Assembly (NCBI GenBank): GCA_002010065.2 | Contig: MTMD02000002.1 | Coordinates: 288,001 to 352,000, forward strand | Reading direction: 5' to 3' | From: Candidatus Pyrohabitans jungbluthii | GTDB lineage: Archaea; Hydrothermarchaeota; Hydrothermarchaeia; Hydrothermarchaeales; BMS3B | DNA length: 64,000 bases | Shown here: in pieces, positions 1 to 14,689 of the stretch | How positions within the stretch are numbered: the first letter of the stretch is position 1 | Layout: every line of letters begins with the position of its first letter | Notes under the pieces: model-generated | Databases searched by the model: none | What the model was told of the DNA's origin: nothing | The model's input: the letters and a program-made list of their open reading frames with translations, nothing else | Position numbers and translations under genes: made by a program

Positions 1-249
1 GTCGGCCTTCTCCAGCACCTGCACCACCGCAGCTGGTATGTCCTGAATTTGAGGCGAGAAGCTGGACATACACCCAACGAAGTAGATTACCTCCGCCCGC
101 TTCCTGAACAGCCTTTTTGGAGGAGAGGGCATGAATTCAGCCCACATCGCGCGTTCGCTGTTTGGAAAGTTCGCCACGTTCTTGTTGTTCGCTATTGCCT
201 CGCGTATAAGCTCGAGGCTCTTCGGGTAGGCAACGCTAGGCTTTGGCAT
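1..249 (-). CDS. HdrD/GlpC-like CCG-domain Fe-S oxidoreductase, N-terminal part (runs off the window)
   Basis: Manual translation MPKPSVAYPKSLELIREAIANNKNVANFPNSERAMW...EVIYFVGCMSSFSPQIQDIPAAVVQVLEKAD; closely paralogous to the CCG region of 292..2331. Confidence 0.8.
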   Translation of the reverse strand, partial: MPKPSVAYPKSLELIREAIANNKNVANFPNSERAMWAEFMPSPPKRLFRKRAEVIYFVGCMSSFSPQIQDIPAAVVQVLEKAD

Positions 250-291
250 TACAAGCACCAGAGTAAGTGAGCAGTTTCACAAGGGCAAAGG

Positions 292-2331
292 CTACTCCAT
301 CGACTCCAGCACCAGCTCGGCGATGTCCTTAACCTCGTAGCGCTTGCCCTCATGCTTTTCAGCGGCTGACTTAATAACACGCTTGCACTGCTGGCACGCT
401 GTAGCGATGGTGTCTATGCCCACTTCATCAGCCTCGTGGATAATCTGCATTGACACCTTCTCAGTAATCTTCGGGTTGGCTATCTCCACGTCGCCACCGC
501 CACCGCAGCACAGCGCAAATTCGCGGTTGTTTGGAAATTCTCTGAACTCAACACCCGGTAGCGCATTTATTACCTCTCGGGGCTCATCGAAGACGCGGGA
601 GTTTCTGCCAAGGTCGCAGGGGTCATGGTAGGCGACGCTGAGGTTGAGGGGCTTCTTCAGCTTTAGTTTGCCTTCCTGAATCAGCCTGGCGATAAATTGC
701 GAGTGGTGCAGAAGCTCTACGCCCTCTATCTTCGGATACTCATGCGCAAATGTGTGGTAACAGCTTGGGCAGGAGAAGACGACGGTTTTCGCTCCTTTGG
801 CTTTTATCGCCTCGATGTTGTGCCTGATGTGCTCCTCTACCTCTTCCTTCATGCCCAGGATCATCAACGGGTAGCCGCAGCAGTACTCCTGCTCGCCCAG
901 GATGGTGAAGTCCACGCCCGCCTTCTCCAGCACCTGCACGAACGCCGCTGGTATATCCTGCACCTGCGGGGAGAAGCTCCCCACGCAGCCCACGAAGTAT
1001 ACCACCTCAGCTTTATCCTTCTGGTAATAATCCTCAGGCGGCTGGGGTATGAAGAAGTCTATCCACATCGCTCTATCGCTGTTGGGGAAGTTTGCCACGT
1101 TCTTCTCATTCACCACCGCTTCGCGAACCATATGGAACTTCTTTGGCAGAAGCCCACGGTGGTAGAGGTTGGCTCTAACGGCGATGCCCAGCTCACGGGT
1201 GTTTATGAACACTGGGCAAGCTTCGGCGCAGCGCGCGCAGAGGAGGCAGTTGTACACCTCGCTTTCAGACATGGCTTTGCCTTCTTTCTTCGCCCACAGC
1301 TTATCTGCGAAGTGCTCTGCCTTAATCTCCTGCTTTACGTGGGAGTTAATCGCGGCATAGCTCAGGTAGGTCTCCAGTTCAGGATCCGCTTTCGTTGCCT
1401 CGTAAACCTGGCAGTTGAAGGTGCATATCTGGCACTTGACGCATGCATCGAGCTGAATGAGCTGGCGGGAGGTGAAGTCTATCTCTGCTGGCTTGCCCTC
1501 AACGCCATGGTAGTCGTAGGGGAAGGCGTTGATAAGCATAACAAAAGGCGAGGTGAAAATATGCCACAGCTTCTTGTTGTAGGGGATACTGGCGAAGAGC
1601 GAAGTCAGAAGAAGCGCGGAGAGGACCCAGAGACCATCGTTAAACCCGCCAAGGAAGGGCAGGGCTTTGCTCAAGCCGTAGGCTATGAACCAGTGACGTG
1701 CGATTTCATCGGGCACATTATAAGCCTGAAGTGCCGCCGCCTCGCCGAGGAATCGGAAGATGAACCATCCGCCGAGGTTAATCACCGCAAGCTTGTCCAC
1801 CAGCGTTGTCTTTATCGGAAAAGCTTTCGCAACGAAGCGGCGGTATATCGCTATGAACTCACCCAGAAGCACCATCCCACCAAAGATTTCGTTAAGCAAT
1901 GCGTAAGTGGCATCTATAGCCTGGAAATTCGCCGGGTTGACCGTCGCAAGATAGTAGTAGTCCACGAAGGGCGCGAAGAAGAAGAGCAGAACCTCAGAAT
2001 AGCCATGAAGCTGCTCCACCCGCGTTGAACCCTTGATGTGATTTACTAAGATTATGCCCACGTAGCCGAAGATTATCAGAACCTTCATCAGCCAGCGCAG
2101 CTTGTCCTGCCTAAAAAGCCTGCGCTGCAGGAAGACCTCCATCACAAGCCGCTCTATTAGCGTAACAATATTCCGGCTGAAGATGTTGCGCACCGCCCAC
2201 TTAACACTTCCAGTGAGGGAATGCCTGCCCTTGAGCCAGAGCGCTATGTTCCACGCCACGCCTATGAGCATTATCGCCGTGCCTATGATGAAGAGCACCA
2301 CGAAGAGGGGTAGTCCACCGAGCATTATCAT
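292..2331 (-). CDS. Membrane-bound heterodisulfide-reductase-like fusion (NarI/HdrE-like membrane domain, 2x[4Fe-4S], CCG domains)
   Basis: Hydrophobic N-terminal half; CVKCQICTFNC and CLLCARCAEACP; YFVGC, CCG, CPSC, YHDPCDLGR, CCGGGG, ACQQC. Confidence 0.85.
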   Translation of the reverse strand: MIMLGGLPLFVVLFIIGTAIMLIGVAWNIALWLKGRHSLTGSVKWAVRNIFSRNIVTLIERLVMEVFLQRRLFRQDKLRWLMKVLIIFGYVGIILVNHIKGSTRVEQLHGYSEVLLFFFAPFVDYYYLATVNPANFQAIDATYALLNEIFGGMVLLGEFIAIYRRFVAKAFPIKTTLVDKLAVINLGGWFIFRFLGEAAALQAYNVPDEIARHWFIAYGLSKALPFLGGFNDGLWVLSALLLTSLFASIPYNKKLWHIFTSPFVMLINAFPYDYHGVEGKPAEIDFTSRQLIQLDACVKCQICTFNCQVYEATKADPELETYLSYAAINSHVKQEIKAEHFADKLWAKKEGKAMSESEVYNCLLCARCAEACPVFINTRELGIAVRANLYHRGLLPKKFHMVREAVVNEKNVANFPNSDRAMWIDFFIPQPPEDYYQKDKAEVVYFVGCVGSFSPQVQDIPAAFVQVLEKAGVDFTILGEQEYCCGYPLMILGMKEEVEEHIRHNIEAIKAKGAKTVVFSCPSCYHTFAHEYPKIEGVELLHHSQFIARLIQEGKLKLKKPLNLSVAYHDPCDLGRNSRVFDEPREVINALPGVEFREFPNNREFALCCGGGGDVEIANPKITEKVSMQIIHEADEVGIDTIATACQQCKRVIKSAAEKHEGKRYEVKDIAELVLESME

Positions 2332-2483
2332 AGTGCCACCACCTTAAGCTGGGTAATTCTAAGTGATTGTGATAACCTTTATAAAATTTGCTATTATTAA
2401 TTATGATAGATTTTAGTTGAAAGCAGTTAAATTATTTTGACACCTAACCAAAACATATATATCCTTCCTTCGCGGAAAGGTAT

Positions 2484-2840
2484 ATGGGGATTAAAATGCC
2501 AAAGATGAGGTTTCTTGTGATTCAAAAACCAAAGGATGAGGTGGTGGGAACGACCCCGCCAGGGGAGATGATAGAGCACGTGCTGAGGCACATAGAGTAC
2601 TTCCGCGAGCTAAAGGAGAAGGGCATAGTTATTGAAGAGGGAGCCTTCGCAGGTGTCAGGGGAGGCTTTGGAATCTTTGAGGTGGAGAGCCTGGAGGAGC
2701 TGAACAGCATACTCAACCACGCGCCGGCGATGCCGTATATGCACACTGAGATTTATCCCCTCGTGAGCCGCGATACCCGCGTTAAGCAGCTTGAGGAGCA
2801 GCTCCGAAAGCTGAGGCAGAAGCTGGAGGTGTACGCGTAG
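2484..2840 (+). CDS. Muconolactone-isomerase/YCII-like dimeric alpha-beta barrel protein
   Basis: GGFGIFEVESLEEL...P...EIYPL pattern; start could be 2496 or 2505. Confidence 0.5.
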   Translation: MGIKMPKMRFLVIQKPKDEVVGTTPPGEMIEHVLRHIEYFRELKEKGIVIEEGAFAGVRGGFGIFEVESLEELNSILNHAPAMPYMHTEIYPLVSRDTRVKQLEEQLRKLRQKLEVYA

Positions 2841-2889
2841 CTTTTCAACTTTTTTCTTGTCACCCACGCCTTTTAAATCAGGTGATATA

Positions 2890-3495
2890 TTGAGGATAAG
2901 GTACTGTGCTTTCTGCGGTAGCAGGCTTAGGGATAACTCCAGATTCTGCCCCTCCTGCGGCGCTGACATGGCGCCCTTCTATGCGCTGGTAGATGCGAGT
3001 AGCTTTGCCGGCGAACTTAAGCGGATGATGAGTGAGATTATAGATGCCAACGCTAAGGCTTTAGAAGAGCTTGCGAGGCAGATGGAGCGCGGCGAAGGCG
3101 GTGTGTTCTTCTCTGTGGAGATGCAGGGGGGGAAGCCACCAATTATCCGCACCGGCAAGCCAGAGGATTTGAAGAAGATACTCAACGAGATCCCTCTGCC
3201 AGATTTTGTGAAGGAGATGTTCAGCTCCGGCGAAAGCTACGAGGCGGAGTTTAAGGAAGCCAGGGTGGAGAGGCGCCAGTACGCGAGGGGTGAGGTTATC
3301 CTGGTGGAGATGCCGGGCATCGCAAGCATAGACGACGTTGAGGTGGTGAAGAAGCAGAGCAACTTGGAAATTGCGGGCAAAGCAGGGAGAGTGGTGTACT
3401 TCGCCCAGGTTCCCCTGGAGGAGAACTCCACCGTCGTAGAGACATCGCTCAGCGACGGCGTGCTCAGGGTTGTGGTGGATAGAAGCAGACCTTGA
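2890..3495 (+). CDS. Zinc-ribbon protein with C-terminal Hsp20-like domain
   Basis: CAFCG...FCPSCG; C-terminal VEMPGI...DGVLRV; TTG start after GGTGA. Confidence 0.6.
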   Translation: MRIRYCAFCGSRLRDNSRFCPSCGADMAPFYALVDASSFAGELKRMMSEIIDANAKALEELARQMERGEGGVFFSVEMQGGKPPIIRTGKPEDLKKILNEIPLPDFVKEMFSSGESYEAEFKEARVERRQYARGEVILVEMPGIASIDDVEVVKKQSNLEIAGKAGRVVYFAQVPLEENSTVVETSLSDGVLRVVVDRSRP

Positions 3496-3496
3496 A

Positions 3497-4738
3497 TTAA
3501 GCTTTAAACCAATCAGATACTTTCTCTTGTGGAAAGAAATTATCTCCTGAAACAATAATGTGTAGTCTTGTATATACACCTCTCGGGACAGATAGAGCCC
3601 CAATACTATTTAATCTTTCACTTGGTTTCAAATTATAAGTTTTTTCTCTAGTCTGGGAATACACTTTGCCTTCTTCTGTTGTATCGAATCCTGCCCAAAT
3701 TTTCAGATTTTCAGCAGTTGCAGAACCTTCATTCTTAACGGTTATATTTATCTCGTAAGTAACATAAAATGGGCTTGAATTAACACTTCTAGATGTAAAT
3801 TCTACGGTTATAATAGGCTTTGGAATAAAGTGCCTTAATATTGCCTCAGTTCCTGTATATTCATCTGGTATCTCGCCGATCTCCCAACCTTCTCCTGTGG
3901 TTTCTATGTAGCAAAAACTATTACCATTACTATCCTCATAAGTGCCTTCTTCGCATTTAACCCCAACTGCCATATGGTTTGGGAATTCCAGCAAAACAGC
4001 ATCATACCCTAATTCATTAATTAAAACAGCTGTCAAAATTGATAAATCTTCACAGTCACCACCTTTGTCTACTAATGTTTCTATCGGGTATCTGGGATAT
4101 TCATCGAAAGGTGTTGTGATGTTATCAGATGTATAAGGCAAACTTTGGACAAAACTAATAACAAAATTTACAGTTTCATATTCATCAAATCCGTTTCTTT
4201 TTGAGACGTTTTTAAACAAATTTGCAAGTTGTGAGATTAGTCTATCGTCATAGGGGTCAGTAGCATAAATTGAATAATCTCCCGTCGGTGGACGTGGCTT
4301 ATTTTTATAATACTCATATAGTGTTTTAGGAAATATTAGGTTCCAGGCATATTGATTTCCTTTGAAATTCCATTTATATTCTCTTAGAATGTAATTTTGT
4401 GTCTCATTTGGTGGAATACAAAATAGCTCTTCTACCCTTGAAGCACACTGATAGTTAGTAGAAACATCGCAATAGTATATTGTTCTACTTTGCTTGAAAT
4501 TTGTACAATTGTTCCATGAAGATGGTTCTGGGCACTGAGGACAAAATTTTACATCCGTTTCTTTTACACTAAAATCTGCGTTATCTGTTGGGATAAATGT
4601 GTATGTAAGAAACCCTAAAAATAATAAGAAGTTGAATTCATAAATAAGAAATTTCACAAGATAATCGTTAATCTTGTTGGATCCATTAGAAATGGATTTA
4701 TTTAGGTTAGAGATCCTGGTGAGAATGTTAAATATCAA
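3497..4738 (-). CDS. Membrane-anchored transglutaminase-like (Cys-His) protein with Ig/CARDB-like C-terminus, in low-GC DNA
   Basis: PIETLVDKGGDCED...NHMAVG...YIETT; VKNEGSATA; sequence visibly AT-rich; start uncertain. Confidence 0.7.
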   Translation of the reverse strand: MIFNILTRISNLNKSISNGSNKINDYLVKFLIYEFNFLLFLGFLTYTFIPTDNADFSVKETDVKFCPQCPEPSSWNNCTNFKQSRTIYYCDVSTNYQCASRVEELFCIPPNETQNYILREYKWNFKGNQYAWNLIFPKTLYEYYKNKPRPPTGDYSIYATDPYDDRLISQLANLFKNVSKRNGFDEYETVNFVISFVQSLPYTSDNITTPFDEYPRYPIETLVDKGGDCEDLSILTAVLINELGYDAVLLEFPNHMAVGVKCEEGTYEDSNGNSFCYIETTGEGWEIGEIPDEYTGTEAILRHFIPKPIITVEFTSRSVNSSPFYVTYEINITVKNEGSATAENLKIWAGFDTTEEGKVYSQTREKTYNLKPSERLNSIGALSVPRGVYTRLHIIVSGDNFFPQEKVSDWFKA

Positions 4739-4970
4739 ATCGGGCCCCCCAAATCATACAATTAATGTTTTATTTGTTCTATTTAAAATATAACTTTTAC
4801 AATGCGATGCGACATCCGAAAAATAAGTTATATCTGCTGATGACGGCAAATAGCTAAATTTTCACCTAAATTTTTATATTTCATGAAATGAGAGCAATGT
4901 GAAAATTTTAAAAAGAGACAATTAAACAATTTGCTGAATAAACGCCTATATCCTTTTTGCTTTTTTGGTA

Positions 4971-5903
4971 TCAAAAATTATACTTGTGCACACAATCCTC
5001 GGCTCTTATTCTGTCGTAATCGCGAGCCATCGCAGGCGTTAGCCAGGGCTTTACGCTTTTCATGGCGTAGCGTATGTCCTCCATGGTTACAATTACGCCG
5101 TCGCCTGAGGCGCGCTGAATCGCCATAAGCTTGGCTTTGCGCGCCAGGCTCTCCAAGTCCCAGCCCACGTAGTACTCCGTCTCTTCTGCAAGCTTCTCCA
5201 GGCTTACATCCTCAGCAAGGGCGACGCCAGAGAAGTAGTACTTCAGTATTGCTAGGCGGTCTTCATAGCTCGGGCGGGGCACGTATATCTTCCTGCCCAG
5301 CATTGAGGTGCGCGTAAACGCCTGGTCAAGCACGTCTATACGGTAGCAGCTCGCCGCGACAAAAATCTCGGGGTCGTACGCGACGCTCGCAATTTCCTCA
5401 TGCACAGCGCGGTGCACTTCCGGCGTTCCGAGCTTATCAGGCTTTCCGTAGGTTGAGCCGTCGCTCCACTCATAGTTAGCGTCCCTGCGGGGAGCTAACC
5501 AGTCCAGGTCCATAAGGTGCACCAGCACCGGCTTATGCTCCCGCGCCCACTCGAAGGCTCTGCGGATAACCTCCTCCTGTGCGGTGCATTCGCGACCTCG
5601 TATGATTAGGTAATTAACACCAGCCTCTTTAGCGCTGGCCTCTATAAGGTGCCCTCTGCCTGTGCCCAGAGGTCCCCACACTATAACGCCAGTGGGAGGC
5701 TGGATTCCTGCCTTTTTCAGAGCTTCGCCGTACTTAAGCGGCGTAACCACAATATCGCGGAACCTCTCCTTTACCTCATCGTAGCCCGCGATCTGCTCAA
5801 AGCTGAAGCGTGGCTCGAGAACATCGAGGTAAACCTCAAAATACTCCTCGATGCTTTTTTTAGAAGAGCCCTCAATATCCTCGTAGCTCATCCGCTTGGT
5901 CAT
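4971..5903 (-). CDS. Cdc48/FtsH-clade AAA+ domain protein with degenerate Walker motifs
   Basis: FEQIAGYDEVK, GVIVWGPLGTGRG, LMDLDWLAPRR, lid GWDLESLARKA. Confidence 0.8.
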   Translation of the reverse strand: MTKRMSYEDIEGSSKKSIEEYFEVYLDVLEPRFSFEQIAGYDEVKERFRDIVVTPLKYGEALKKAGIQPPTGVIVWGPLGTGRGHLIEASAKEAGVNYLIIRGRECTAQEEVIRRAFEWAREHKPVLVHLMDLDWLAPRRDANYEWSDGSTYGKPDKLGTPEVHRAVHEEIASVAYDPEIFVAASCYRIDVLDQAFTRTSMLGRKIYVPRPSYEDRLAILKYYFSGVALAEDVSLEKLAEETEYYVGWDLESLARKAKLMAIQRASGDGVIVTMEDIRYAMKSVKPWLTPAMARDYDRIRAEDCVHKYNF

Positions 5904-5912
5904 GTTCTCCCC

Positions 5913-6782
5913 CTAATACATGTAGCGGTGCTTGCACTCCTCTTTATAAATATCGTCATAGCGGCGCAGCATCTCCGGCGTAAGCTCAGGGGTTATGCGC
6001 TCAAGTGCTTGCAAAAAATGCCTGAGCTTAACGCTGCTGAAGTTGTTTTTCTCCTCCTTTATTGCCATGAGCGTCGCCTGCCTTGGCAAGGAAAACAGCT
6101 GGGAAGGCGTGTGGTAGGCTGTTGCTTCAGCGAGCTTCTCCAGCGAGACGTCCTCGCCTAAGGGCACGTCGCTGAGCACCCTCTTGAGAATCTCAAGCCT
6201 GTCCTCAAACGCTGCGGGGGGCACGTATATCTTGCGGTCTATCCTGCCGTTGCGCAGCAGCGCCGGGTCGAGAATATCCACACGGGAGCTTGATACGAGT
6301 ATCTTAACGTCGTCGCGGTCGGCAAGCTCATCCACGCACTTAAAAAGCAAACGCGTCGCCTCGCGAGAGGCGAACACAGGTGGAGGAGGCAGAAGTGCTG
6401 ACTCAGCCTCGCGGCGCGGCGCTAAAATTTCCACCTCGCTTATGAACACCAAGCTTGGCGCCAGTTCGCGAGCAGCGTCGAAGAGGTGCTCAATGCTGTG
6501 CTCCTCCTCCACTAGGTTCTTCGCCTGCGCCGATAATAGCGTTACGCCCGCCTCCTTGGCGCTCGCCTCGGCAAATGTAGCAAAGCTGTTGGGTGGACCC
6601 CACATGAGTATGCCCCTCGGAGGGCGAAGACCGGCTTGTTTAAACGTCTCCGGGTGCTTCAGCGGGAGCACCACCATCTCCTCGAGGCGCTCCTTCACCT
6701 CCCAGAAGCCAGCTATTTCTTCAAAGCCAACCTCAGGCTCCTTAACCTTGAAGTACTGCCCTGGCTCAAGAACCTCGCACAT
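5913..6782 (-). CDS. Cdc48/FtsH-clade AAA+ domain protein with degenerate Walker motifs
   Basis: GILMWGPPNSFAT, FISEVEILAPRR, LDPALLRNGRIDRKIYV. Confidence 0.8.
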   Translation of the reverse strand: MCEVLEPGQYFKVKEPEVGFEEIAGFWEVKERLEEMVVLPLKHPETFKQAGLRPPRGILMWGPPNSFATFAEASAKEAGVTLLSAQAKNLVEEEHSIEHLFDAARELAPSLVFISEVEILAPRREAESALLPPPPVFASREATRLLFKCVDELADRDDVKILVSSSRVDILDPALLRNGRIDRKIYVPPAAFEDRLEILKRVLSDVPLGEDVSLEKLAEATAYHTPSQLFSLPRQATLMAIKEEKNNFSSVKLRHFLQALERITPELTPEMLRRYDDIYKEECKHRYMY

Positions 6783-6783
6783 G

Positions 6784-7854
6784 TTACCTTGCTCCCATCT
6801 TCTTTCCTGCGTTAACCATAACCTTAAGGTTTTCTATGGGCGTGCCCGCGTGCAAGCCACAGCTGGAGGAGACTATGTAACCCTCGCTGCCCGCGCTGGT
6901 TATGCATTTCTCAACATTACCCTCGATCTCGGCGCGGGTGCCTCGATAGATGGTGTCCACAGAGACGTTTCCGAATAGCGCTACGCGGTTACCAACACGG
7001 CGCTTGGCATCGCGCAGGTCAACGCTCTCGTCAACGCTCAAGCAAGAGGCCCCTGTTTTTGCAAGGTCTTCCAGTATTGGTGTGGTGTCACCGCAGATGT
7101 GGATTATAACTTCGCCTCCATACTTGCGCAGCGCAGAGCAAACCTTCTTCTCGTAGGGGTAGGCGAACTCGCGGTAGTGCACAGGCGATATTACCTGGGC
7201 CGCAGCGCTCGGGTCTTCCATCATTATCCCGTGCGTGCCCAAGTCGATCTGTCTCTTACCTATCTCAATCGCCACCTCAGTCATAAACTCAAGCAAGCGG
7301 TGAACCTCTCTAGGCTGGGTTATCATGTCCAGCATGAAGTTCTCCATGCCGCGCATCCACTCTGCGGCGTAGTGAAAGGGCGCTGGAACCTTGCTGCATA
7401 TGTAGACTTCGCCCTTTGTCTTTTCGAGCAAAGCCTTAAGCGGCTCCCACCTCTCGGGCTTATCCAGGTCTGGCATCTCCAGCTTGTCCAGCTCATCGTA
7501 GCTTTTAAGCGCCGGCTCCTTAACCGCGGGTCCACCCTCCAGGGGTATCTTCAGGGTAGTGCCCAGCTCAGTAGGGAGCACCACAAAGCCATTCTCCACC
7601 CGCATTGCTCGCCTTTCCTCTCTTGTAATCCCCTGGATGGGCTGGTGGTTGAATATCCAGTCGTAGCCATAGAGGCGCCATGCCTTGAGCTGGCCCTTAA
7701 CGTAAAGCTTGTTGTCTGTGACGTACTCCCAGGGTTTAACCCCCAGCACACGGGAAGCGTGGGGCACATTTACCATCGGCGCTACTGGCACGCGGTCAGG
7801 CGTGCCGCGCTGCATGGCTTCGCGGAACCTCTTTAACGAGTTCACGCTTCCCAC
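6784..7854 (-). CDS. MtaA/CmuA (UroD-family) methylcobamide:thiol methyltransferase
   Basis: PDRVPVAP, IHICG zinc motif, SSSCG; start may be GTG at 7845. Confidence 0.85.
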   Translation of the reverse strand: MGSVNSLKRFREAMQRGTPDRVPVAPMVNVPHASRVLGVKPWEYVTDNKLYVKGQLKAWRLYGYDWIFNHQPIQGITREERRAMRVENGFVVLPTELGTTLKIPLEGGPAVKEPALKSYDELDKLEMPDLDKPERWEPLKALLEKTKGEVYICSKVPAPFHYAAEWMRGMENFMLDMITQPREVHRLLEFMTEVAIEIGKRQIDLGTHGIMMEDPSAAAQVISPVHYREFAYPYEKKVCSALRKYGGEVIIHICGDTTPILEDLAKTGASCLSVDESVDLRDAKRRVGNRVALFGNVSVDTIYRGTRAEIEGNVEKCITSAGSEGYIVSSSCGLHAGTPIENLKVMVNAGKKMGAR

Positions 7855-8479
7855 GCTCCTTCATAAGCTTCTCGCACAGCTTAACCGCTTTAGCGGCATC
7901 GCTTGCGTAGCCGTCGGCGCCAATCTCGCGGGCGTAACTTTCGCTCGCCGCCGCGCCGCCTATAATCACGAGCACATCATCGCGCAGTCCTGCCTCTTCC
8001 AGTGCTTCGATGACCTCCCGCATCTTGACTATCGTTGTTGACATCATCGCCGAAAGCCCGAGAATGTCTGGCTTGTACTTGCGTGTCTCCTCAACAAAAA
8101 CCTGCGTCGGCACATCTCTACCGAGATTCTTAACCTCGAAGCCAGCGCCTTCCAGGAACATGGACACGAGGTTCTTGCCTATATCGTGCACATCGCCGGC
8201 GACGGTGCCAATGAGCACCTTACCTTGAACCTCGACTTTATCGTAGTTGAGCAGGGGGCGAATAATGTCCAAACCTCGCTGCATCGCGTGCGCACTGAGC
8301 AGCGTCTCAGGTACATAGTAAACCCTGCGCTCAAAGAGGTCGCTGACCACCTCCATGCCTGAGATCATGTCTTTTAGGATGTCGTTCGCAGCTTCGCCGT
8401 GTTCAAGGGCAGCGTTGACAAGCTCCTCAATTTCGTATATTTTCCCTTCAATTACCGCCTTCTTTATCTCTTCGCCCAT
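7796..8479 (-). CDS. Corrinoid protein (MtaC/MtbC family)
   Basis: GDVHDIGKNLV B12-binding motif, LSAMM, IIGGA, GADGYA. Confidence 0.92.
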   Translation of the reverse strand: MGEEIKKAVIEGKIYEIEELVNAALEHGEAANDILKDMISGMEVVSDLFERRVYYVPETLLSAHAMQRGLDIIRPLLNYDKVEVQGKVLIGTVAGDVHDIGKNLVSMFLEGAGFEVKNLGRDVPTQVFVEETRKYKPDILGLSAMMSTTIVKMREVIEALEEAGLRDDVLVIIGGAAASESYAREIGADGYASDAAKAVKLCEKLMKERGKRELVKEVPRSHAARHA

Positions 8480-8529
8480 GTCGATAACCAGCAGAAAAGC
8501 TAACGTTTGGAATAGCTCTTAAAAGATGT

Positions 8530-8949
8530 TTAAGAAAATTTTAATTGTCTACCTTGCAGGATATGCTCCACCTCCACCCCGCGCTTCTCGAGCTCCTCGG
8601 CTATGAACCTGCGGTGGCAGTAGCGCGGGTTTTCTTCAAGGCACATTATCACCACCCTCCTAAGTCTAGCGCGTTCAATAAGCTCCTTCAGCCCGCGCTT
8701 AAATTCTTCCGTGGCAGTATAAGCGAGGTAGCTTGGTTTGCGGTAACCCCCCAGAGCCTTTAAGTGGTGGTAGGCGATGCCCGCACTTTCAAGGTGTTCC
8801 TTTAACTTCTCCTGCTTGAAATCCTCCTTCTTCGATGTGGGGAAGCTGCGTACATCGATGAGTTCCTCAATCCCGAGGCTTTTTAGGGTGCTGATAAAAT
8901 CGGAGATGCTCATCTTCGCATAGCCTATTGTAAACACCTTCATACTCAT
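8530..8949 (-). CDS. DUF488 family protein
   Basis: FTIGY, LIDVRSFP, MCLE..P..CHR. Confidence 0.85.
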   Translation of the reverse strand: MSMKVFTIGYAKMSISDFISTLKSLGIEELIDVRSFPTSKKEDFKQEKLKEHLESAGIAYHHLKALGGYRKPSYLAYTATEEFKRGLKELIERARLRRVVIMCLEENPRYCHRRFIAEELEKRGVEVEHILQGRQLKFS

Positions 8950-8960
8950 ACTCCGTCACC

Positions 8961-9797
8961 CTATCGCTTCGCGAGACGGGTAACTCCGTCACCCGAAACT
9001 GCGTTCCGGGTAACCCAGCAGCCGTTCAGAAGCATCTCCAGCTTGGGGTGGGTGAATGAAGTGTAGTCCAGAATCAGGAGGTCCTTATTCTCGCCGAGAA
9101 TGGTGTCCACATAGCCGTACCAGTACACAACTATGCCAGGACCAAAGTTTTTTATGTAGTGGGAGAGCTGCTTCCTCATATAGAGCTTGTGCTCTTCCTC
9201 GTCTGCGAAAACTGCCTTGCTTTCCACCCACGCTACGCGCATTCCGAGGATTCTCAAGCCACTGACCAAGAAGTCGGGGGTCTTTGCTCCTGCCATCTTG
9301 ACCATACTGTCCTCGCTTATAAAGGCCGCGCCTCTGCTGCGAAGCCAAGCTTTAATTATCTCCTCTCCCAGCTCTCCGCGAATGCGCTGCCTTTCGTGGG
9401 CTTGCCTGGAGAATACAAAATCCCTAGCCTGAGCATCAGCTAACTCCATATCCAGCCTCTCATTGCCGGAGCCCTCGCCATTGAGGGCAAGCCTCTTCAC
9501 CTTCTTCCTGGAGAAACCCATGGCAGAGAGCAAAAAGCGAGCGATGAGTACGGGTGGGAAGTTCCTCTCTTCGGCGATTTCCACAATGCTCTTGCCAGCC
9601 TCCCACTCTGCAAGAAGCTCCTCTTTACGCTTCTCCAAGAGGTGGTAGCTCTCCTTTACGCTTCTAACAACCTTCAGGTTGAGCACAGCTTCCAGCACAC
9701 CCTCTGGCAGGCGAAGCTTCTTAGCGTAAATGCACGCATCCTCTGGAGAACTTACCAAGGAGTATATATGCCGGTACTCCTCTTTCCTGAGGGGCAT
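8961..9797 (-). CDS. C15orf41/CDIN1 (TPD) family PD-(D/E)XK nuclease-like protein
   Basis: KTPDFL...WVESKAVF...QLSHY..NFGPGIVVYWYGY. Confidence 0.75.
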   Translation of the reverse strand: MPLRKEEYRHIYSLVSSPEDACIYAKKLRLPEGVLEAVLNLKVVRSVKESYHLLEKRKEELLAEWEAGKSIVEIAEERNFPPVLIARFLLSAMGFSRKKVKRLALNGEGSGNERLDMELADAQARDFVFSRQAHERQRIRGELGEEIIKAWLRSRGAAFISEDSMVKMAGAKTPDFLVSGLRILGMRVAWVESKAVFADEEEHKLYMRKQLSHYIKNFGPGIVVYWYGYVDTILGENKDLLILDYTSFTHPKLEMLLNGCWVTRNAVSGDGVTRLAKR

Positions 9798-9859
9798 TTT
9801 TATAACCCCCAAGGTTAACGCTGGAAAAATACAAAAGGCGGGCAGAGGGATAAGAAAAC

Positions 9860-10213
9860 ATGCGCTATTTAATTCACACCTCAAGCGGTGACTTTGTGTG
9901 CAGGGCGAAGCTTGCGGATACCTTCTTCGCCCGTGCTATAGGTTTGATGTTCAGGCGGGATTTAGCTAGAGATGAGGGGCTGCTGATAAAGTTCCCGGGC
10001 TACGCAAAAGGTGCAGCAATCCACTCCTTCTTCATGCGCTTTCCCATAGACCTCTACTTTATTGGCGAGGATATGCGCGTAGTTGAGCACGCGACGCTTA
10101 AGCCGTGGAGCTGGTACAAGCCAAGCAAGGCTTGCACCTATGTGCTTGAGGTAAAAGCGGGGAGCGTCGCTTTAAAGCCAGGGGAGAGGCTGAGGCTCAC
10201 CCCTCTGCCCTGA
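9860..10213 (+). CDS. DUF192 family protein
   Basis: ADTFFARAIGLMFR, IHSFFMRFPID, YVLEVKAG. Confidence 0.85.
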   Translation: MRYLIHTSSGDFVCRAKLADTFFARAIGLMFRRDLARDEGLLIKFPGYAKGAAIHSFFMRFPIDLYFIGEDMRVVEHATLKPWSWYKPSKACTYVLEVKAGSVALKPGERLRLTPLP

Positions 10214-12245
10214 ACCTGCGCAGCAGGAAGGTGTAGAACTCCTCCCCGCTCTTCCTGCTCAGCCTTTCAAGTATGAGCTCTGGCGTGGAGCGCGCGAGCT
10301 TTCCCAGCACTGGGTTGCGGTCGACGATGAGGTTCAGGTTCTCATCTAAGCCCTTAGCCTCAATGCCGTCGATGCGCACGCTGGGCAAGCCCAGGCTGAG
10401 GAGCTCTTCCCCCAGGTGGGTTACAATCGCCACAAGTGTGCCGCTATCGCGGGAGAACCACTCCAGCATGGCTGCGATAATCTTCGCCGCGGCTCCAGGT
10501 TCAGTCACCGCCTCTATCTCGTCGGCCAGAATAAGCCTACGCTCAGCCTTGGAGGCTGCTATCCCCGCGAAGCTCCTGAGAAGCGACTCAAAGGCACCTG
10601 CTCCGCTTTCTCCGCGCCGCTTTGCAAAGAAGTAGAGCTTTTGCAACAGTGGTACCTCGGCACTCTCCGCGAGCACAGGCAAGCCGGACTGAGCCATTAT
10701 CTGCACCTGGGCTATGGTCTCGAGAAGCGTAGTTTTGCCCCCCGAGTTCGCGCCGGTGATAACAGCGATTCTCTTGCTGTTAAAACCAAGCTCATAGCTC
10801 ACCGGCTGGGGTTGAGAGGAGGCGCTAAGCAAAAGGTGGCGCGCATTCACAAAGCGAAGCCTCATGGCTTCGCTCACCTTTGCCTGAGTTGCGGAGTAGC
10901 GCAGACTGAAGCTTCCCAGCGCTAGGAGGTAGTCAAGCTCAAGGGCAAGCTCAACGCTGCGTTTTACGCCTGCTACCTTGCTCGCCAGCTTAACAGCAAG
11001 CTCCCTCTTTGCCGCAAAGCTACGGCGTGAAGCCTCGGCGCTGAGCCACGCTTCCACGTCTGCGCTCCTTTCAGGGTTGAGTTCTATGGGATAGGAGACA
11101 GAAAATAAGCCTGCGAACCTCAGCGCCTCACTGCTTAAGCGGAGCCTCTCCGCAAGCTTCGCCTCGTATTCCTCCGCCACCTCTGCTATAACCTCGCGAA
11201 GCTCCTCCGGCAGGTAGCTTCCGGGCGAGGCGCTTATCCTAGCAAGCAGGTCAAGCATCTCTGCGCCGCGAATTGCCACGCCCCGCTTCTCCACACGGCG
11301 CTCAACCTCGCGGTTTGCCTCTTCCACGCAAGCTTCGCTGAGAAGTGCAAAATTAGCGCTGGCATAGGCGTAGGGGTTCTCATCCTCCTTCAGCCTTTTG
11401 ATCCTCTCTGCGATGCGTGCAAGCTCTTCGCCACTCAGGTGCTCCTTACCTATGAGGCGGAGTCTCTCCTCTCCGACTATAGCGAGCACCTCTGCACAGG
11501 TCTCAATCACACTGAGGTTCTCCTCAAAGAAGGATAGGGTAAGCTCGGGAAGAGCTTCAGGCTCTGAGAAATCTGGGAATACCTCCGCATTGGCAGCACC
11601 GCCCAGCATGGAGGCGTAGCCTTTGCTTCCCTGAATATAGCGCACCAGCTCGAAACTGCGCAGCGCTTCCAGGTCTTCTGGGCTCTCTACCAGGAGTACC
11701 TCTATGATGCCTCTGTACTTAGATGATAGCTCCTGGTAGAGTTCCTCGTCCTCCACTGCGAGCACCTGCGAAGCCACCCTCACGTTTCGAGGGGTTTTCG
11801 GATAGCCCATGCCCTTAAGCAGGCGACGAACCTCGCGAAGCTTCTCTGCGCCCAGCGCCTTCGCAAGCTTTACACCCAGCGCAACGTCGCGACGCAGCAC
11901 CTCCAAGCTATTTTCAGACGCCACAGGGTAGAAAAGCGAGAGCTTCGCCTTAGCGTAGCTCGTGCATGCCTCTTTGCGCAAAGCTTCGAGCACCTGCGCG
12001 TATATCTGCCTAGCCTCCGGGGTGGCTAGTATGTCGGCATACTCCACCCCCGTAACCCTTGAAAAAATCTCTCTTGCTATTTCCACCTGCTTCGCTGGCG
12101 CTACGCTGGAAGAGAAGAGCTCATAGAACCTGAGGGAAGCGAAGGAGCGCAGCGCCCTGGCTTCGCTGCCATAGGCTGAGATAAGCTCGGCCCTTACCTT
12201 CTCTCCCACACCTTTTATATCTCTCAGGCTTGTGAGCATGCTCAC
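10197..12245 (-). CDS. Archaeal MutS-family ATPase with N-terminal HhH
   Basis: IKGVGEK; TGANSGGKTT; GAGAFES; LADEIEAVTEPGAA; IVTH. Confidence 0.85.
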   Translation of the reverse strand: MSMLTSLRDIKGVGEKVRAELISAYGSEARALRSFASLRFYELFSSSVAPAKQVEIAREIFSRVTGVEYADILATPEARQIYAQVLEALRKEACTSYAKAKLSLFYPVASENSLEVLRRDVALGVKLAKALGAEKLREVRRLLKGMGYPKTPRNVRVASQVLAVEDEELYQELSSKYRGIIEVLLVESPEDLEALRSFELVRYIQGSKGYASMLGGAANAEVFPDFSEPEALPELTLSFFEENLSVIETCAEVLAIVGEERLRLIGKEHLSGEELARIAERIKRLKEDENPYAYASANFALLSEACVEEANREVERRVEKRGVAIRGAEMLDLLARISASPGSYLPEELREVIAEVAEEYEAKLAERLRLSSEALRFAGLFSVSYPIELNPERSADVEAWLSAEASRRSFAAKRELAVKLASKVAGVKRSVELALELDYLLALGSFSLRYSATQAKVSEAMRLRFVNARHLLLSASSQPQPVSYELGFNSKRIAVITGANSGGKTTLLETIAQVQIMAQSGLPVLAESAEVPLLQKLYFFAKRRGESGAGAFESLLRSFAGIAASKAERRLILADEIEAVTEPGAAAKIIAAMLEWFSRDSGTLVAIVTHLGEELLSLGLPSVRIDGIEAKGLDENLNLIVDRNPVLGKLARSTPELILERLSRKSGEEFYTFLLRRFRAEG

Positions 12246-13609
12246 CTCTCCCAGGGGAACCTGGGGTCGAGGTACTCAGCTAAGCTGGGCAGCGCCTCTT
12301 CAACCAAGCAATTATCGCCCACCAGCACCTCTGCTCCTGCCTCCAGTGCCCTTGCCACGTGACTGGGCACTCCCCTCTCTCTCAGCTTGCCCGCGTCTAT
12401 GAAATCTTTCAGTAACTCATCAGCGCGAACATGCTTTCGCTTCAGGTACACAACCCACCTGTCGCCGCGAATGAATGGTCTGGAAAGCGTGTTTTCCCCA
12501 CCGACGTACTTCTTCAGGAACCTCGGCTCATGCGGAGAGTTCACCTTTGGACCCAAGTGGAGCTTAACAGCGGGTATCTCTGTGCTCGTGAGCTCAAAGA
12601 ATAGCAGCGTCTTTTCACCCACATGAAAGGCGCTGCCCACGACACCGAAATCCTCATTGCGCAGTACAGCTTCGAAGAAGCGCTGGGCTTTTCTCAGCTG
12701 GGGGTACAGGATGTCGTCCACCACGTGGGGGGTGGGAAAGCTCAGCGCTATAAGCGCAGTCCCTCTCTGCCTGAGCAGCTCTCGCAGCGCCTGCTCGCTA
12801 ACCTCCCTCTCCCGGGGGAAGAAGAACTCCAGCCTCGGGTTTGCCAGGTACTCCTTAGCAGCATAGATAAACTCGCTGAACCTCTGCAGAGAGAGCGCCG
12901 CCGCAACGTTGCGGTTCTCGTCAACGGGATCGAGGAAGATGAGCGGTGAGGAGAACTTCCTTCGCACTGCCTTCTCGTCAACATCGCCGCGAAGCGAGAG
13001 CACTTCTCCTCGCTTAAAGTGCTTCGCGGCTTCAAGCACGCGAATAAAGCTTCCAAACTTTATCACCAGAAGCTCGCACAGATAGCCCGAGAATCCCTCC
13101 ACCTTCGCCTCGGCGCCGTAGCAGCCTATGCCCTTGAGAAACTGCTTTAACAGGCGAACTTCGTTTTCCAGGCCGGATATACGCTTCTTAACATAGTCGT
13201 TGTGGAAAGGCGTTCTATCTACAGCGCTCTTCAGGTAGCTCGTGTCTTTTATAGCATAGCACGGCACAAGCTCAACGTCATAGCCGCGAAACTCTCCCCT
13301 GACATACGGATGCTCCGCATACCTCTTCTCCACCCTCTTCAATACCCGCGAAGCTATGCTCGTGACTATGCGCTCCATCTCTTCCTTGGAGTACTCCTCC
13401 GGGAAGAAAATAAAAACGTCCAGATCCTTCTGATAGCGCAGCCAGGTGCCTCGAGAGGCGGAGCCCAAGAGGCGTGCATAAAGGCGGCGATCGTACTGCG
13501 AGGCTTCAGAGTCTATGCGTGCAACCAGCTCCTTCTCCACCTCTCTTAGCTTAGCCTCCTCCTCCGGGGTGGGCACTATCCTGCTGAGCACCTCCTCAAT
13601 AACCTGCAT
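12242..13609 (-). CDS. cca: CCA-adding enzyme (class I)
   Basis: GSASRGTWL...DLDVF, YAEHPY, SAVDRTPFH, GFSGYLCELL. Confidence 0.95.
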   Translation of the reverse strand: MQVIEEVLSRIVPTPEEEAKLREVEKELVARIDSEASQYDRRLYARLLGSASRGTWLRYQKDLDVFIFFPEEYSKEEMERIVTSIASRVLKRVEKRYAEHPYVRGEFRGYDVELVPCYAIKDTSYLKSAVDRTPFHNDYVKKRISGLENEVRLLKQFLKGIGCYGAEAKVEGFSGYLCELLVIKFGSFIRVLEAAKHFKRGEVLSLRGDVDEKAVRRKFSSPLIFLDPVDENRNVAAALSLQRFSEFIYAAKEYLANPRLEFFFPREREVSEQALRELLRQRGTALIALSFPTPHVVDDILYPQLRKAQRFFEAVLRNEDFGVVGSAFHVGEKTLLFFELTSTEIPAVKLHLGPKVNSPHEPRFLKKYVGGENTLSRPFIRGDRWVVYLKRKHVRADELLKDFIDAGKLRERGVPSHVARALEAGAEVLVGDNCLVEEALPSLAEYLDPRFPWER

Positions 13610-13639
13610 GGGTTAAGATATGCAGAGAAAAATAAAAGG

Positions 13640-14689
13640 TTATTCCCTCTCCTGCCTGTAGAGGTATATGTCCATCTTGGGGTAGGGAATCTCTATTCCC
13701 TCCTCTGCAAAGCGGCGGTAAATTTCGCTGTTCAGATAGTGCACCGCTCTGCCCTTATAGCGGGGCTCAATAACCCAGCAGAGGAGCTCGAACTCTAAAC
13801 CTGAGTCGCCGAATCTGCGGAAGCGCACCCTCGGCGAGGGCTTCTCAACAACGTATTCATTCTTCAGGGCTATCTCCTTAAGGAGTTCCTCCACTCTGTC
13901 AATATCACTCCCGTAGGCGACGCTTATTGGAACGCGCACCCTGAACCGCGGCTGAGGGGCGCTCTCATTTATTATCTTTGAGCTGGCGATTATTGAATTG
14001 GGAATGCTTATCAGCACGTCGTCGCGGGTTTTAATCTTTGTGCTTCTCAGCCCTATCTCCACAACCTCCCCGCGCTCGCCTGAGTCTAGGATTATGTAGT
14101 CCCCGATTTTAAAGGGCTTATCCATAAAGATGCTCACCCCGCCGAAGAAGTTAGCTATGGTGTCCTTCGCTGCAAAGGCGACGGCGAAGCCCGCGATGCC
14201 AGCGGATGCGAGTATTGGGGTTATATCCTTTTCCCATACGGAGAGCAGCACCATCGCAGCGCCGGCGAGAAGCACCGCCTTGGCAATATTCTCCAGCAGG
14301 GGGACAAGTTCCTTCCCCAAGCCTGTGACGTCCACGATACGCACCGCTAAGCCGGTGAAGATAATAGAGATGGAGCGGTATAGTGCGACAACCCAGAGGA
14401 GAACCGCCGCAGATTTTAGCAGGTTTACAGTGTATAACTCAACCTGCGCAGGAGGCTGGAGATAGCGCACCGCCTGCACTGCGCCGAAAAGTACTATGGA
14501 CACGAAAAGGGGGCGGTGTAGTATCTCCACCAGGCGGTCGTCGAAGGTGAAGCGGGTGCGCGCTGTTATTCGCGAAAGTCCGCGGGTGACGAGCAGGTCA
14601 ACGAGCTTCGCCCCCACTATGGAGGCGAGGAGCAGAACCCCTGCGTTGAAGTATTTCGAGGCTGTAAGCTCAAAAAGCGCTGGGTCCAT
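13640..14689 (-). CDS. mscS: Small-conductance mechanosensitive channel
   Basis: FAAKDTIANFFGG, KPFKIGD, GLRST, IPNS, GIEIPYP. Confidence 0.92.
   Translation of the reverse strand: MDPALFELTASKYFNAGVLLLASIVGAKLVDLLVTRGLSRITARTRFTFDDRLVEILHRPLFVSIVLFGAVQAVRYLQPPAQVELYTVNLLKSAAVLLWVVALYRSISIIFTGLAVRIVDVTGLGKELVPLLENIAKAVLLAGAAMVLLSVWEKDITPILASAGIAGFAVAFAAKDTIANFFGGVSIFMDKPFKIGDYIILDSGERGEVVEIGLRSTKIKTRDDVLISIPNSIIASSKIINESAPQPRFRVRVPISVAYGSDIDRVEELLKEIALKNEYVVEKPSPRVRFRRFGDSGLEFELLCWVIEPRYKGRAVHYLNSEIYRRFAEEGIEIPYPKMDIYLYRQERE

Follow-up and report, generated by a model that had tools for sequence, protein, structure and literature searches.

A rebuilt family of single-domain AAA proteins co-inherited with a corrinoid methyltransferase gene set in Hydrothermarchaeota

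The methyltransferase locus and its two AAA genes

The DNA considered in this work, referred to below as the window, is the whole stretch of 64,000 nucleotides at positions 288,001 to 352,000 of contig MTMD02000002.1 of Candidatus Pyrohabitans jungbluthii, and the work concerns a set of four tightly packed genes on its minus strand. In the open reading frame (ORF) listing these genes occur in the order corrinoid protein (CorP), URO-D/MtaA-like methyltransferase (UROD1) and two AAA proteins (AAA1 and AAA2). The genome to which the window belongs has a size of 1.99 Mb and is 99.95% complete, and its closest records are metagenome-assembled genomes labelled Hydrothermarchaeota, of which 'Ca. Pyrohabitans sp. 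JdFR-17' has the same genes at about 98% identity. The four genes are as follows:

7796..8479, minus strand: CorP, MtaC/MtbC-like corrinoid protein of 227 amino acids (PF02310 B12-binding, 2.4e-28; PF02607 B12-binding_2, 1.4e-16)
6784..7845, minus strand: UROD1, URO-D/MtaA-like methyltransferase of 353 amino acids (PF01208, 2.7e-70)
5913..6782, minus strand: AAA1, single-domain classical AAA protein of 289 amino acids (Pfam AAA, 6.8e-15)
4971..5903, minus strand: AAA2, single-domain AAA paralogue of 310 amino acids (AAA, 2.8e-11; AAA_lid_3, 8.9e-11)

A preliminary description made from the sequence had reported an operon with one overlap and gaps of 1 and 9 bp, and the same spacing is found in the ORF listing. 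The overlap between CorP and UROD1 is 59 nt if the longest UROD1 ORF (6784-7854) is used and 50 nt with the GTG start at 7845, which is backed in the alignment by orthologues beginning with MNS; the gaps of 1 nt and 9 nt lie between UROD1 and AAA1 and between AAA1 and AAA2, respectively. Pfam backs the assignments of all four genes. However, none of the four proteins reaches a curated NCBIfam cut-off, and therefore none is orthologous to a named enzyme. In the case of CorP, the score against TIGR02370 is 186.2 (cut-off 215.3), and this protein has the features of a cognate corrinoid protein, viz. both Pfam domains and the cobalt-ligand motif DxHxxG (8177-8194), whose residues D96, H98 and G101 do not vary among 11 orthologues. 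UROD1 scores 161.8 against the MtaA/CmuA model TIGR01463 (cut-off 235.4), and its best matches among solved structures are UroD 1j93 (3.8e-20) and MtaA 4ay7 (6.4e-20). It contains an H-x-C motif (7090-7101) and an SSSCG cysteine (6856-6870), and the corresponding residues H249, C251 and C329, which from the MtaA literature we take to be zinc ligands, are invariant in 16 sequences. The same H-x-C...C arrangement is present in UROD2, a second URO-D protein described below.

ATP sites, pore loops and tails of the AAA proteins

AAA1 and AAA2 score 56.1 and 44.4 bits, respectively, against PF00004 (gathering cut-off 21.2), and they are paralogues that share 41% identity (E 9e-71). A third paralogue, AAA3, scoring 80.3 bits against the same model, is encoded on another contig of the same genome (G000:C10:58733-59611). 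In the homologue search these proteins belong to a distinct family of about 76 clusters (229-301 residues) standing above the CDC48/PAN background. A separate search for fusions and for longer members of the family yielded none, the only matches being ordinary two-domain CDC48 proteins with at most 48% identity, and among the paralogues it is AAA3 whose identity to archaeal CDC48 reaches 48%. The nearest known proteins, by sequence as well as by fold, are the D2 domains of CDC48, VAT (5vc7, 5g4f) and p97 (3cf0), with which the AAA core and the lid are shared and, in AAA1, also the arginines of the second region of homology (SRH). The sequence match to VAT has E-values of 1.3e-76 (AAA1) and 1.2e-59 (AAA2), and the AlphaFold2 model of AAA1 (pLDDT 92.2, with a mean of only 75 for residues 281-289) has p97 D2 (3cf0_A) as its best structural match (E 3.8e-24, TM 0.79). 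However, the scores against the CDC48 model TIGR01243 are only 173.8 and 153.5 bits versus 802.65, and those against the PAN models TIGR01242/NF003069 are 158 and 126 bits versus 500, while a true PAN is encoded on contig C14 of the genome. Neither AAA1 nor AAA2 matches the Pfam RACo/RamA domains PF14574/PF17651, and no Fe-S or other redox motif was seen in the AAA proteins. AAA1 and AAA2 are classical AAA domains, and they are not CDC48, PAN or RACE proteins. Structural look-alikes in the ESM Atlas were generic AAA clusters, none of them functionally telling.

The positions of Walker A, Walker B, sensor-1 and the arginine fingers were set by alignment to the VAT and p97 D2 domains, and the features of the two genes are:

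6576-6599, minus strand: Walker A of AAA1, GPPNSFAT, without lysine
6495-6524, minus strand: site of the pore-loop-1 deletion in AAA1
6429-6446, minus strand: Walker B of AAA1, FISEVE
6231-6260, minus strand: LLRNGRIDRK of AAA1, both arginine fingers kept
5913..5942, minus strand: tail of AAA1, EECKHRYMY, with the stop codon
5652-5675, minus strand: Walker A of AAA2, GPLGTGRG
5571-5600, minus strand: conserved RGRECT of AAA2 at the pore-loop-1 deletion site
5502-5519, minus strand: Walker B of AAA2, HLMDLD
5412-5474, minus strand: conserved pore-loop-2 insert of AAA2, 21 residues
5289-5318, minus strand: FTRTSMLGRK of AAA2, second arginine finger gone
4971..5000, minus strand: tail of AAA2, EDCVHKYNF, with the stop codon

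For the two proteins of the window, this alignment confirms the earlier statement of a missing Walker A lysine and an altered Walker B. However, within the family the loss of the lysine is a characteristic of the AAA1 group, where none of 9 rows has a lysine, and not of AAA2 in general, as the lysine is found in 6 of 8 AAA2 rows and in 48 of the 50 clusters with a readable motif, in the pattern GPLGxGK followed by G, A, M or W and never by S/T. The change from K to R, seen in just 2 of these 50 clusters, is peculiar to the lineage of the window. Walker B varies among the AAA1 orthologues (S-E here), and it reads HLMD[IL]D in AAA2. In AAA3, Walker A is intact (GPPGGGKT here and GPPGGGK[TS] in 10/10 rows), while Walker B is N-E and sensor-1 is Tyr. 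The canonical patterns for Walker A (GxxxxGK[ST]) and Walker B (hhhhDE) are both lacking in AAA1 and AAA2, and AAA3 contains the former but not the latter. The retention of the arginine-finger region in one of the two proteins, as noted earlier, is seen for AAA1, which has both fingers and the sequence LLRNGR in 9/9 rows, whereas in 8/8 AAA2 rows the second SRH arginine is lost and the first is kept; AAA3 often has Lys at the first of these positions and retains the second Arg. The three paralogues thus carry complementary site defects.

Further, all 31 family rows have a 5-residue deletion across pore loop 1, where 9/9 CDC48/PAN rows have K[WFY]xGE, and all 31 contain in the pore-loop-2 region a conserved, paralogue-specific insert of 7-14 residues. 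Based on these motifs, the members of the family are predicted to lack the usual means of threading polypeptides. The common ending of the two proteins (EECKHRYMY and EDCVHKYNF) that had been pointed out in the window is a property of the family: EECKHRYMY is exact in 59 of the 76 clusters, a related C-x-H tail is present in 15 and the tail is truncated in 2, and its Cys, His and Tyr are invariant across AAA1, AAA2 and AAA3 (consensus C-x-H-x-Y-x-[YF]). The CDC48 and PAN tails that were compared are HbYX-like (LYR in PAN P0104), whereas in this family the Tyr is instead third from last. The N-terminal MCE of AAA1 is also conserved. Residue H255 was considered as a partner of the tail and dropped because CDC48 proteins often have this His too. 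A CDC48-D2-type domain has been rebuilt to give this family, which differs from it in consisting of one AAA domain with neither the N domain nor D1, in the absence of pore loop 1 and the presence of the pore-loop-2 insert, in the degenerate Walker A/B of two of its three paralogues and in the C-x-H-x-Y-x-[YF] tail.

The dN/dS ratios were determined by the Nei-Gojobori method for the window genes versus their counterparts in loci L010 and L042, respectively, and the values are 0.043 and 0.078 for AAA1, 0.160 and 0.048 for AAA2 and 0.047 and 0.038 for UROD1; for CorP the value is 0.159 (L010 only). Purifying selection, for which a check of this kind had been proposed, is strong on both AAA1 and AAA2, with no decay.

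In a maximum-likelihood tree, AAA1 is nested among forms with an intact P-loop and AAA2 lies on a long branch, while the two family members that are present in each of the genomes G137 and G138 form a separate clade. Two AAA1-type sequences, P0056 and P0057, one of which is labelled Thermodesulfobacteriota, adjoin a Hydrothermarchaeales AAA1 in this tree, a placement that points to a recent transfer or a mis-binned contig. A distant branch (P0297-P0302), showing 38-43% identity to AAA2, has the Walker A sequence GPLGxG[IM]T and the tail DCPHHYxF. One of its members is labelled Firestonebacteria; the branch is absent from the genome behind locus L027, and 0/99 genomes of the phylum of the Firestonebacteria-labelled member gave a match. 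The tail-coding end of AAA3 (its last ~30 nt) recurs 730-821 nt further downstream in two unrelated loci (L016:8616-8644 and 9437-9465; L052:457-489 and 1187-1219), and in L016 the repeats enclose a small cassette with a HEPN-domain gene; the 3' end of AAA3 looks like the target of an insertion that regenerates it.

Gene order and phyletic distribution

The gene order CorP-UROD1-AAA1-AAA2 is present in all 8 of the genome loci that contain an AAA1 orthologue (L009-L016; in L012, the contig ends within AAA2). Among the metagenome loci, all 5 with sequence upstream of AAA1 (L042-L046; L044 and L045 duplicate the genome loci L013 and L014) have UROD1 immediately before it, and AAA2 comes after AAA1 in every locus that includes both ends. 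UROD2 directly precedes CorP in 5 of the 8 related genome loci, and L009 forms a single block AAA3 | UROD2-CorP-UROD1-AAA1-AAA2. AAA3 is divergent from UROD2 in the window genome, L022 and L009, and it is located 2-3 kb from AAA2 in L013 and L016. In the genome of the window, UROD2 has been relocated along with AAA3 to a different contig, C10, and it is a candidate MT1 which was overlooked in the preliminary description.

The region around AAA3 in this genome (C10:54815-61296; L070) also encodes a radical S-adenosylmethionine (SAM) enzyme, an ABC ATPase, an ABC-2 permease, a class-V pyridoxal phosphate (PLP) enzyme and a thioredoxin-like protein. Of these, the radical SAM enzyme (C10:54815-55840) belongs to the AmmeMemoRadiSam type (TIGR04337, 241 bits; cut-off 220), and the PLP enzyme (C10:57527-58663), judged from its sequence, appears to be without the catalytic-cysteine loop of the SufS type. 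AAA3 is directly upstream of the gene for the PLP enzyme, on the same strand, and this is one of two contexts in which the PLP enzyme adjoins an AAA gene, the other being an AAA2-like gene in G137 and G138.

The distribution of the family was surveyed in 38 genomes of the phylum, and one 740-aa CDC48 match was left out of the AAA family count. The numbers of genomes with each gene, given in total and then for the 10 genomes that contain the AAA family (family genomes) and the 28 others, are:

AAA family: 10 genomes; 10/10 family genomes, 0/28 others
UROD1 orthologue: 11 genomes; 10/10 family genomes, 1/28 others
Class-V PLP enzyme: 11 genomes; 9/10 family genomes, 2/28 others
AmmeMemoRadiSam-type radical SAM enzyme: 11 genomes; 9/10 family genomes, 2/28 others
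SAM methyltransferase: 8 genomes; 7/10 family genomes, 1/28 others
RACo-type activator: 23 genomes; 9/10 family genomes, 14/28 others

The AAA family is strictly co-inherited with the URO-D/corrinoid methyl-transfer set. The single genome that has UROD1 and no AAA family member is 78% complete, and the gene is found at a contig end. All three AAA paralogues are present in 9 of the 10 family genomes, and a DNA pattern for the tail (EECKHRYMY) matches 9 of the 38 genomes versus 0 for the reversed control. The tie of the AAA genes to corrinoid genes, for which homologue and synteny checks had been proposed, is thus seen in 8/8 loci and in the presence of UROD1 in all 10 family genomes. Within the genus of the window the set is present in only 2 of 5 genomes, and this patchy presence indicates an accessory module gained or lost as a unit.

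Around the AAA genes, the orthologues that recur (in L013, L015, L016, L068, L069 and C10 of the window genome) are the PLP enzyme, the radical SAM enzyme, the SAM methyltransferase, a second radical SAM enzyme, an SsuA-like binding protein and an ABC-2 transporter. The radical SAM enzyme usually adjoins the PLP enzyme, and genes for an FmdE-domain protein and a small zinc-ribbon protein accompany that of the SAM methyltransferase. Otherwise full-length matches to the PLP orthologues of G013, G026 and G031, and likewise to the SAM-methyltransferase and RACo orthologues of G018, contain single in-frame stops (TAA, TAG or TGA); these stops could represent assembly errors, decay or recoding.

With regard to other methyltransferase genes, the ORF and Pfam analyses of positions 1-14000 of the window revealed neither an MT1-type gene nor a RACo gene, in agreement with the earlier observation that no MT1 and no RamA-type activator is adjacent. 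However, genes of both kinds are found elsewhere in the genome, and the argument that had been built on their absence fails, as UROD2 is upstream of CorP in 5/8 loci and RACo is encoded in 9/10 family genomes. The genome of the window has one RACo-type gene (C14:96837-98777; PF14574), with an N-terminal ferredoxin-like part. It is located in a second, classical cluster (C14:85700-99800) comprising URO-D proteins, a corrinoid protein, RACo and an MtrH-like protein, with a CobW-like GTPase nearby; no member of the AAA family is present in this cluster. RACo is found in the same 9-kb locus as an AAA gene in L048, and in G018 it is 3.2 kb from UROD1. The family genome that lacks RACo is 62% complete. 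The McrA and ComA families have no match in the window genome; however, the control for ComA also fails in Methanosarcina.

The sequences flanking the four genes have the following features, read from the sequence:

8480..8529, minus strand: 50-nt spacer upstream of CorP with the A/T-rich box TTTTAAGA, a possible archaeal promoter
4739..4970, minus strand: spacer 3' of AAA2, A/T-rich with T-runs, likely the end of the transcription unit

The GC content of the latter spacer is 0.31-0.35, versus about 0.55 in the operon. The 413-aa gene directly 3' of AAA2 (3497-4738, minus strand), which gives a weak transglutaminase-like (DUF553) match, forms with this spacer (4739-4970) a block with a GC of 31-35%, versus about 55% in the flanks, due to which it looks like recently acquired DNA. 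The DUF488 and TPD-domain genes directly upstream of CorP (8530-9884, minus strand) occur only here and in JdFR-17, and they are outside the conserved cluster.

Interpretation of the AAA family and rival explanations

MT1, a corrinoid protein, MT2 and a RACE-type reductive activator are regarded as all that a corrinoid methyltransferase system requires. Full-text literature searches revealed no paper linking AAA proteins to corrinoid methyltransferase clusters. This result includes two genome papers on the Hydrothermarchaeota phylum, and in the term-searched text of PMC9635834, PMC6946796 and PMC6775978 such a link is unmentioned, although their supplementary tables could list the genes. The components encoded next to the AAA genes resemble those of MtaA/MtaC-type systems in the DxHxxG corrinoid protein and the URO-D-fold enzymes with H-x-C...C, and a system with two URO-D proteins is known in MtsA/MtsB; they differ from the MtaA/MtaC-type systems in that the curated cut-offs are missed, the match to solved MtaA is at 6.4e-20 and McrA/ComA are unmatched in the genome.

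The explanation that we tentatively prefer, with somewhat less than even confidence, is that the AAA proteins form a hetero-oligomeric ring that does not thread polypeptides and serves as a nucleotide-gated platform for docking or assembly of the methyltransferase set. According to this proposal, a D2-type domain of CDC48/VAT was rebuilt by the loss of pore loop 1, the gain of the pore-loop-2 insert and the replacement of an HbYX-like tail by C-x-H-x-Y-x-Y/F, and the resulting family would be a dedicated accessory of a patchy gene set consisting of the corrinoid protein and two zinc-motif URO-D methyltransferases (UROD1 and UROD2). AAA1, AAA2 and AAA3 would assemble in one ring, in which nucleotide would be bound by AAA3 and in most lineages also by AAA2, while AAA1 would bind no nucleotide and would lend its arginine fingers to the site of its neighbour. 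Such a ring would function as an 'activase' or scaffold that engages the methyltransferase components via the remodelled pore face and, possibly, docking by the tails, and it would not replace the reductive activator RACo/RamA, as the same genomes encode both. The idea of a heteromeric pseudo-ATPase put forward in the preliminary description is in part retained here. The degenerate sites, together with the presence of both arginine fingers in AAA1 alone, fit a heteromer; however, because Walker A is intact in AAA3 and the lysine is kept in most AAA2 orthologues, the assembly is probably nucleotide-binding and not a pure pseudo-ATPase.

In their mode of action, the nearest analogues of the proposed ring would be the silent or assembly-only AAA rings and the enzyme activases. 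In NSF D2, Pex1/Pex6 D1 and p97 D1, nucleotide is bound at the sites but hydrolysed little or not at all, aromatic pore loops are absent and the role is mainly in assembly; hetero-hexamers mix competent and incompetent sites. However, these rings stack on an active motor in the same polypeptide, whereas the AAA family has no active threading ring and its partner is a metabolic methyltransferase set. Rubisco activase and CbbX are likewise dedicated AAA+ accessories whose genes neighbour, and are inherited together with, those of a single metabolic enzyme, but they are active ATPases pulling on their substrate by means of pore loops, whereas this family is without pore loop 1 and most of the catalytic residues.

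Several considerations weigh against the docking ring. Physical contact of the AAA proteins with each other, or with UROD1 or CorP, is hypothetical; a complex prediction for UROD1, CorP and AAA1, using for each its own alignment and no controls, gave a score of 0.00 and is counted for neither side. Due to the N-E in Walker B and the Tyr at sensor-1 of AAA3, hydrolysis is uncertain for every member of the family. AAA3 is without a linked URO-D gene in three loci (L018, L020 and L021), and the linkage evidence comes from the family outside the distant branch P0297-P0302. The genomes that were compared are relatives, and the counts overstate the number of independent events. Further, the family covaries also with the PLP enzyme, the radical SAM enzyme and the SAM methyltransferase plus FmdE, which is not explained by a simple methyltransferase accessory, and the true partner of the AAA proteins may be the PLP enzyme, the radical SAM enzyme or the SAM methyltransferase/FmdE.

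This covariation (PLP enzyme 9/10 vs 2/28, radical SAM enzyme 9/10 vs 2/28 and SAM methyltransferase 7/10 vs 1/28) is also part of the evidence for a different explanation, which we consider unlikely, viz. that the AAA tails are themselves substrates or carriers, in which Cys/His/Tyr peptides would be methylated, thiolated or cross-linked by the co-inherited enzymes (corrinoid/URO-D methyltransferases, radical SAM enzymes, class-V PLP enzyme and SAM methyltransferase) to give a carrier of thiol or methyl groups on the protein, or a molecule resembling a cofactor or a ribosomally synthesized and post-translationally modified peptide. The Cys, His and Tyr are invariant in the three paralogues, a class-V PLP enzyme adjoins an AAA gene in two contexts and an ABC-2 transporter is nearby, but no peptidase, RRE/PqqD-like or leader-recognition genes were seen in the neighbourhoods examined, and a folded AAA domain of 290 residues, strongly selected and with arginine fingers, exceeds the needs of a leader. 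MtaA-type URO-D enzymes methylate thiols at a zinc site, and this chemistry, with the H-x-C...C invariant in UROD1 and UROD2, would accord with a tail substrate, as would the lack of McrA/ComA matches in the window genome; however, the absence of ComA says little, its control being negative in Methanosarcina as well, and the modification itself is hypothetical. A combined form, in which the AAA ring is the scaffold and not a motor and the invariant C-x-H-x-Y tails are the chemical groups, is given only a slight chance. In this form the tail would be either a thiol that takes up or passes on methyl groups from the corrinoid/URO-D enzymes, so that a protein would take the place of coenzyme M in this archaeon without a McrA/ComA match, or a templated peptide that the radical SAM enzyme, the class-V PLP enzyme and the SAM methyltransferase would turn into a new product resembling a cofactor or a modified peptide of the above kind. 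It also appears improbable that the ring is a metallochaperone or cofactor loader, whose tails (Cys-x-His-Cys in AAA3) would bring zinc to the URO-D proteins or hold and hand corrinoid to CorP. The invariant Cys and His in a flexible tail (mean model confidence of 75 at 281-289), the extra Cys in the AAA3 tails and the conserved RGRECT-D-H at the AAA2 pore site are consistent with this, and the constant neighbours are zinc-motif enzymes and a cobalt protein, with FmdE-domain and zinc-ribbon proteins recurring nearby; however, a single Cys and a single His per chain make a weak site, known metallochaperone families were unmatched in the Pfam and NCBIfam scans, and other URO-D/corrinoid clusters in the same genome are without an AAA partner.

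The two remaining explanations are much less probable. That the proteins are general proteostasis factors (CDC48/proteasome cofactors or decoys) with incidental methyltransferase neighbours is very unlikely: although their nearest sequence and fold relatives are the CDC48/VAT/p97 D2 domains and PAN, the gene order is conserved, UROD1 is present in all 10 family genomes, pore loop 1 is deleted and the Tyr of the tail is third from last, unlike in the HbYX of the CDC48/PAN tails compared; moreover, the absence of the family from 28 of the 38 genomes, including 3 of 5 from the same genus, fits an accessory and not a housekeeping role. The possibility that the AAA proteins replace RamA/RACE in the ATP-dependent reductive reactivation of the corrinoid is largely refuted, and we give it hardly any credence. 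The AAA proteins share with RamA/RACo the position of an accessory in corrinoid methyltransferase clusters, for which ATP use would be expected, and the absence of a RACo gene from positions 1-14000 of the window and the tight linkage of the family to the corrinoid protein could be read in this manner. However, RACE proteins have the ASKHA fold with Fe-S clusters, and the AAA proteins have neither, no redox motif being seen in them; canonical ATP binding is precluded in two of the three paralogues, and a RACo-type gene with a ferredoxin-like part is on C14. As RACo is encoded in 9/10 family genomes, of which the tenth is the 62% complete one, and lies close to AAA or UROD1 genes in L048 and G018, it will be incorrect to interpret the AAA proteins as a stand-in for RamA/RACE.

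The AAA trio, rebuilt without pore loop 1, with a graded loss of the ATP sites and with a new invariant tail, is a fifth type of component that is inherited strictly with one corrinoid system. If the ring scaffolds, gates or chemically serves methyl transfer, it would represent a new class of accessory in B12 enzymology, and it would also provide a natural case of an unfoldase domain that has been turned into a non-threading hetero-oligomeric platform. The AAA proteins are small and soluble-looking, and hence amenable to direct study. In addition, these results delimit a patchily inherited module of roughly ten genes in the uncultured subsurface phylum Hydrothermarchaeota.

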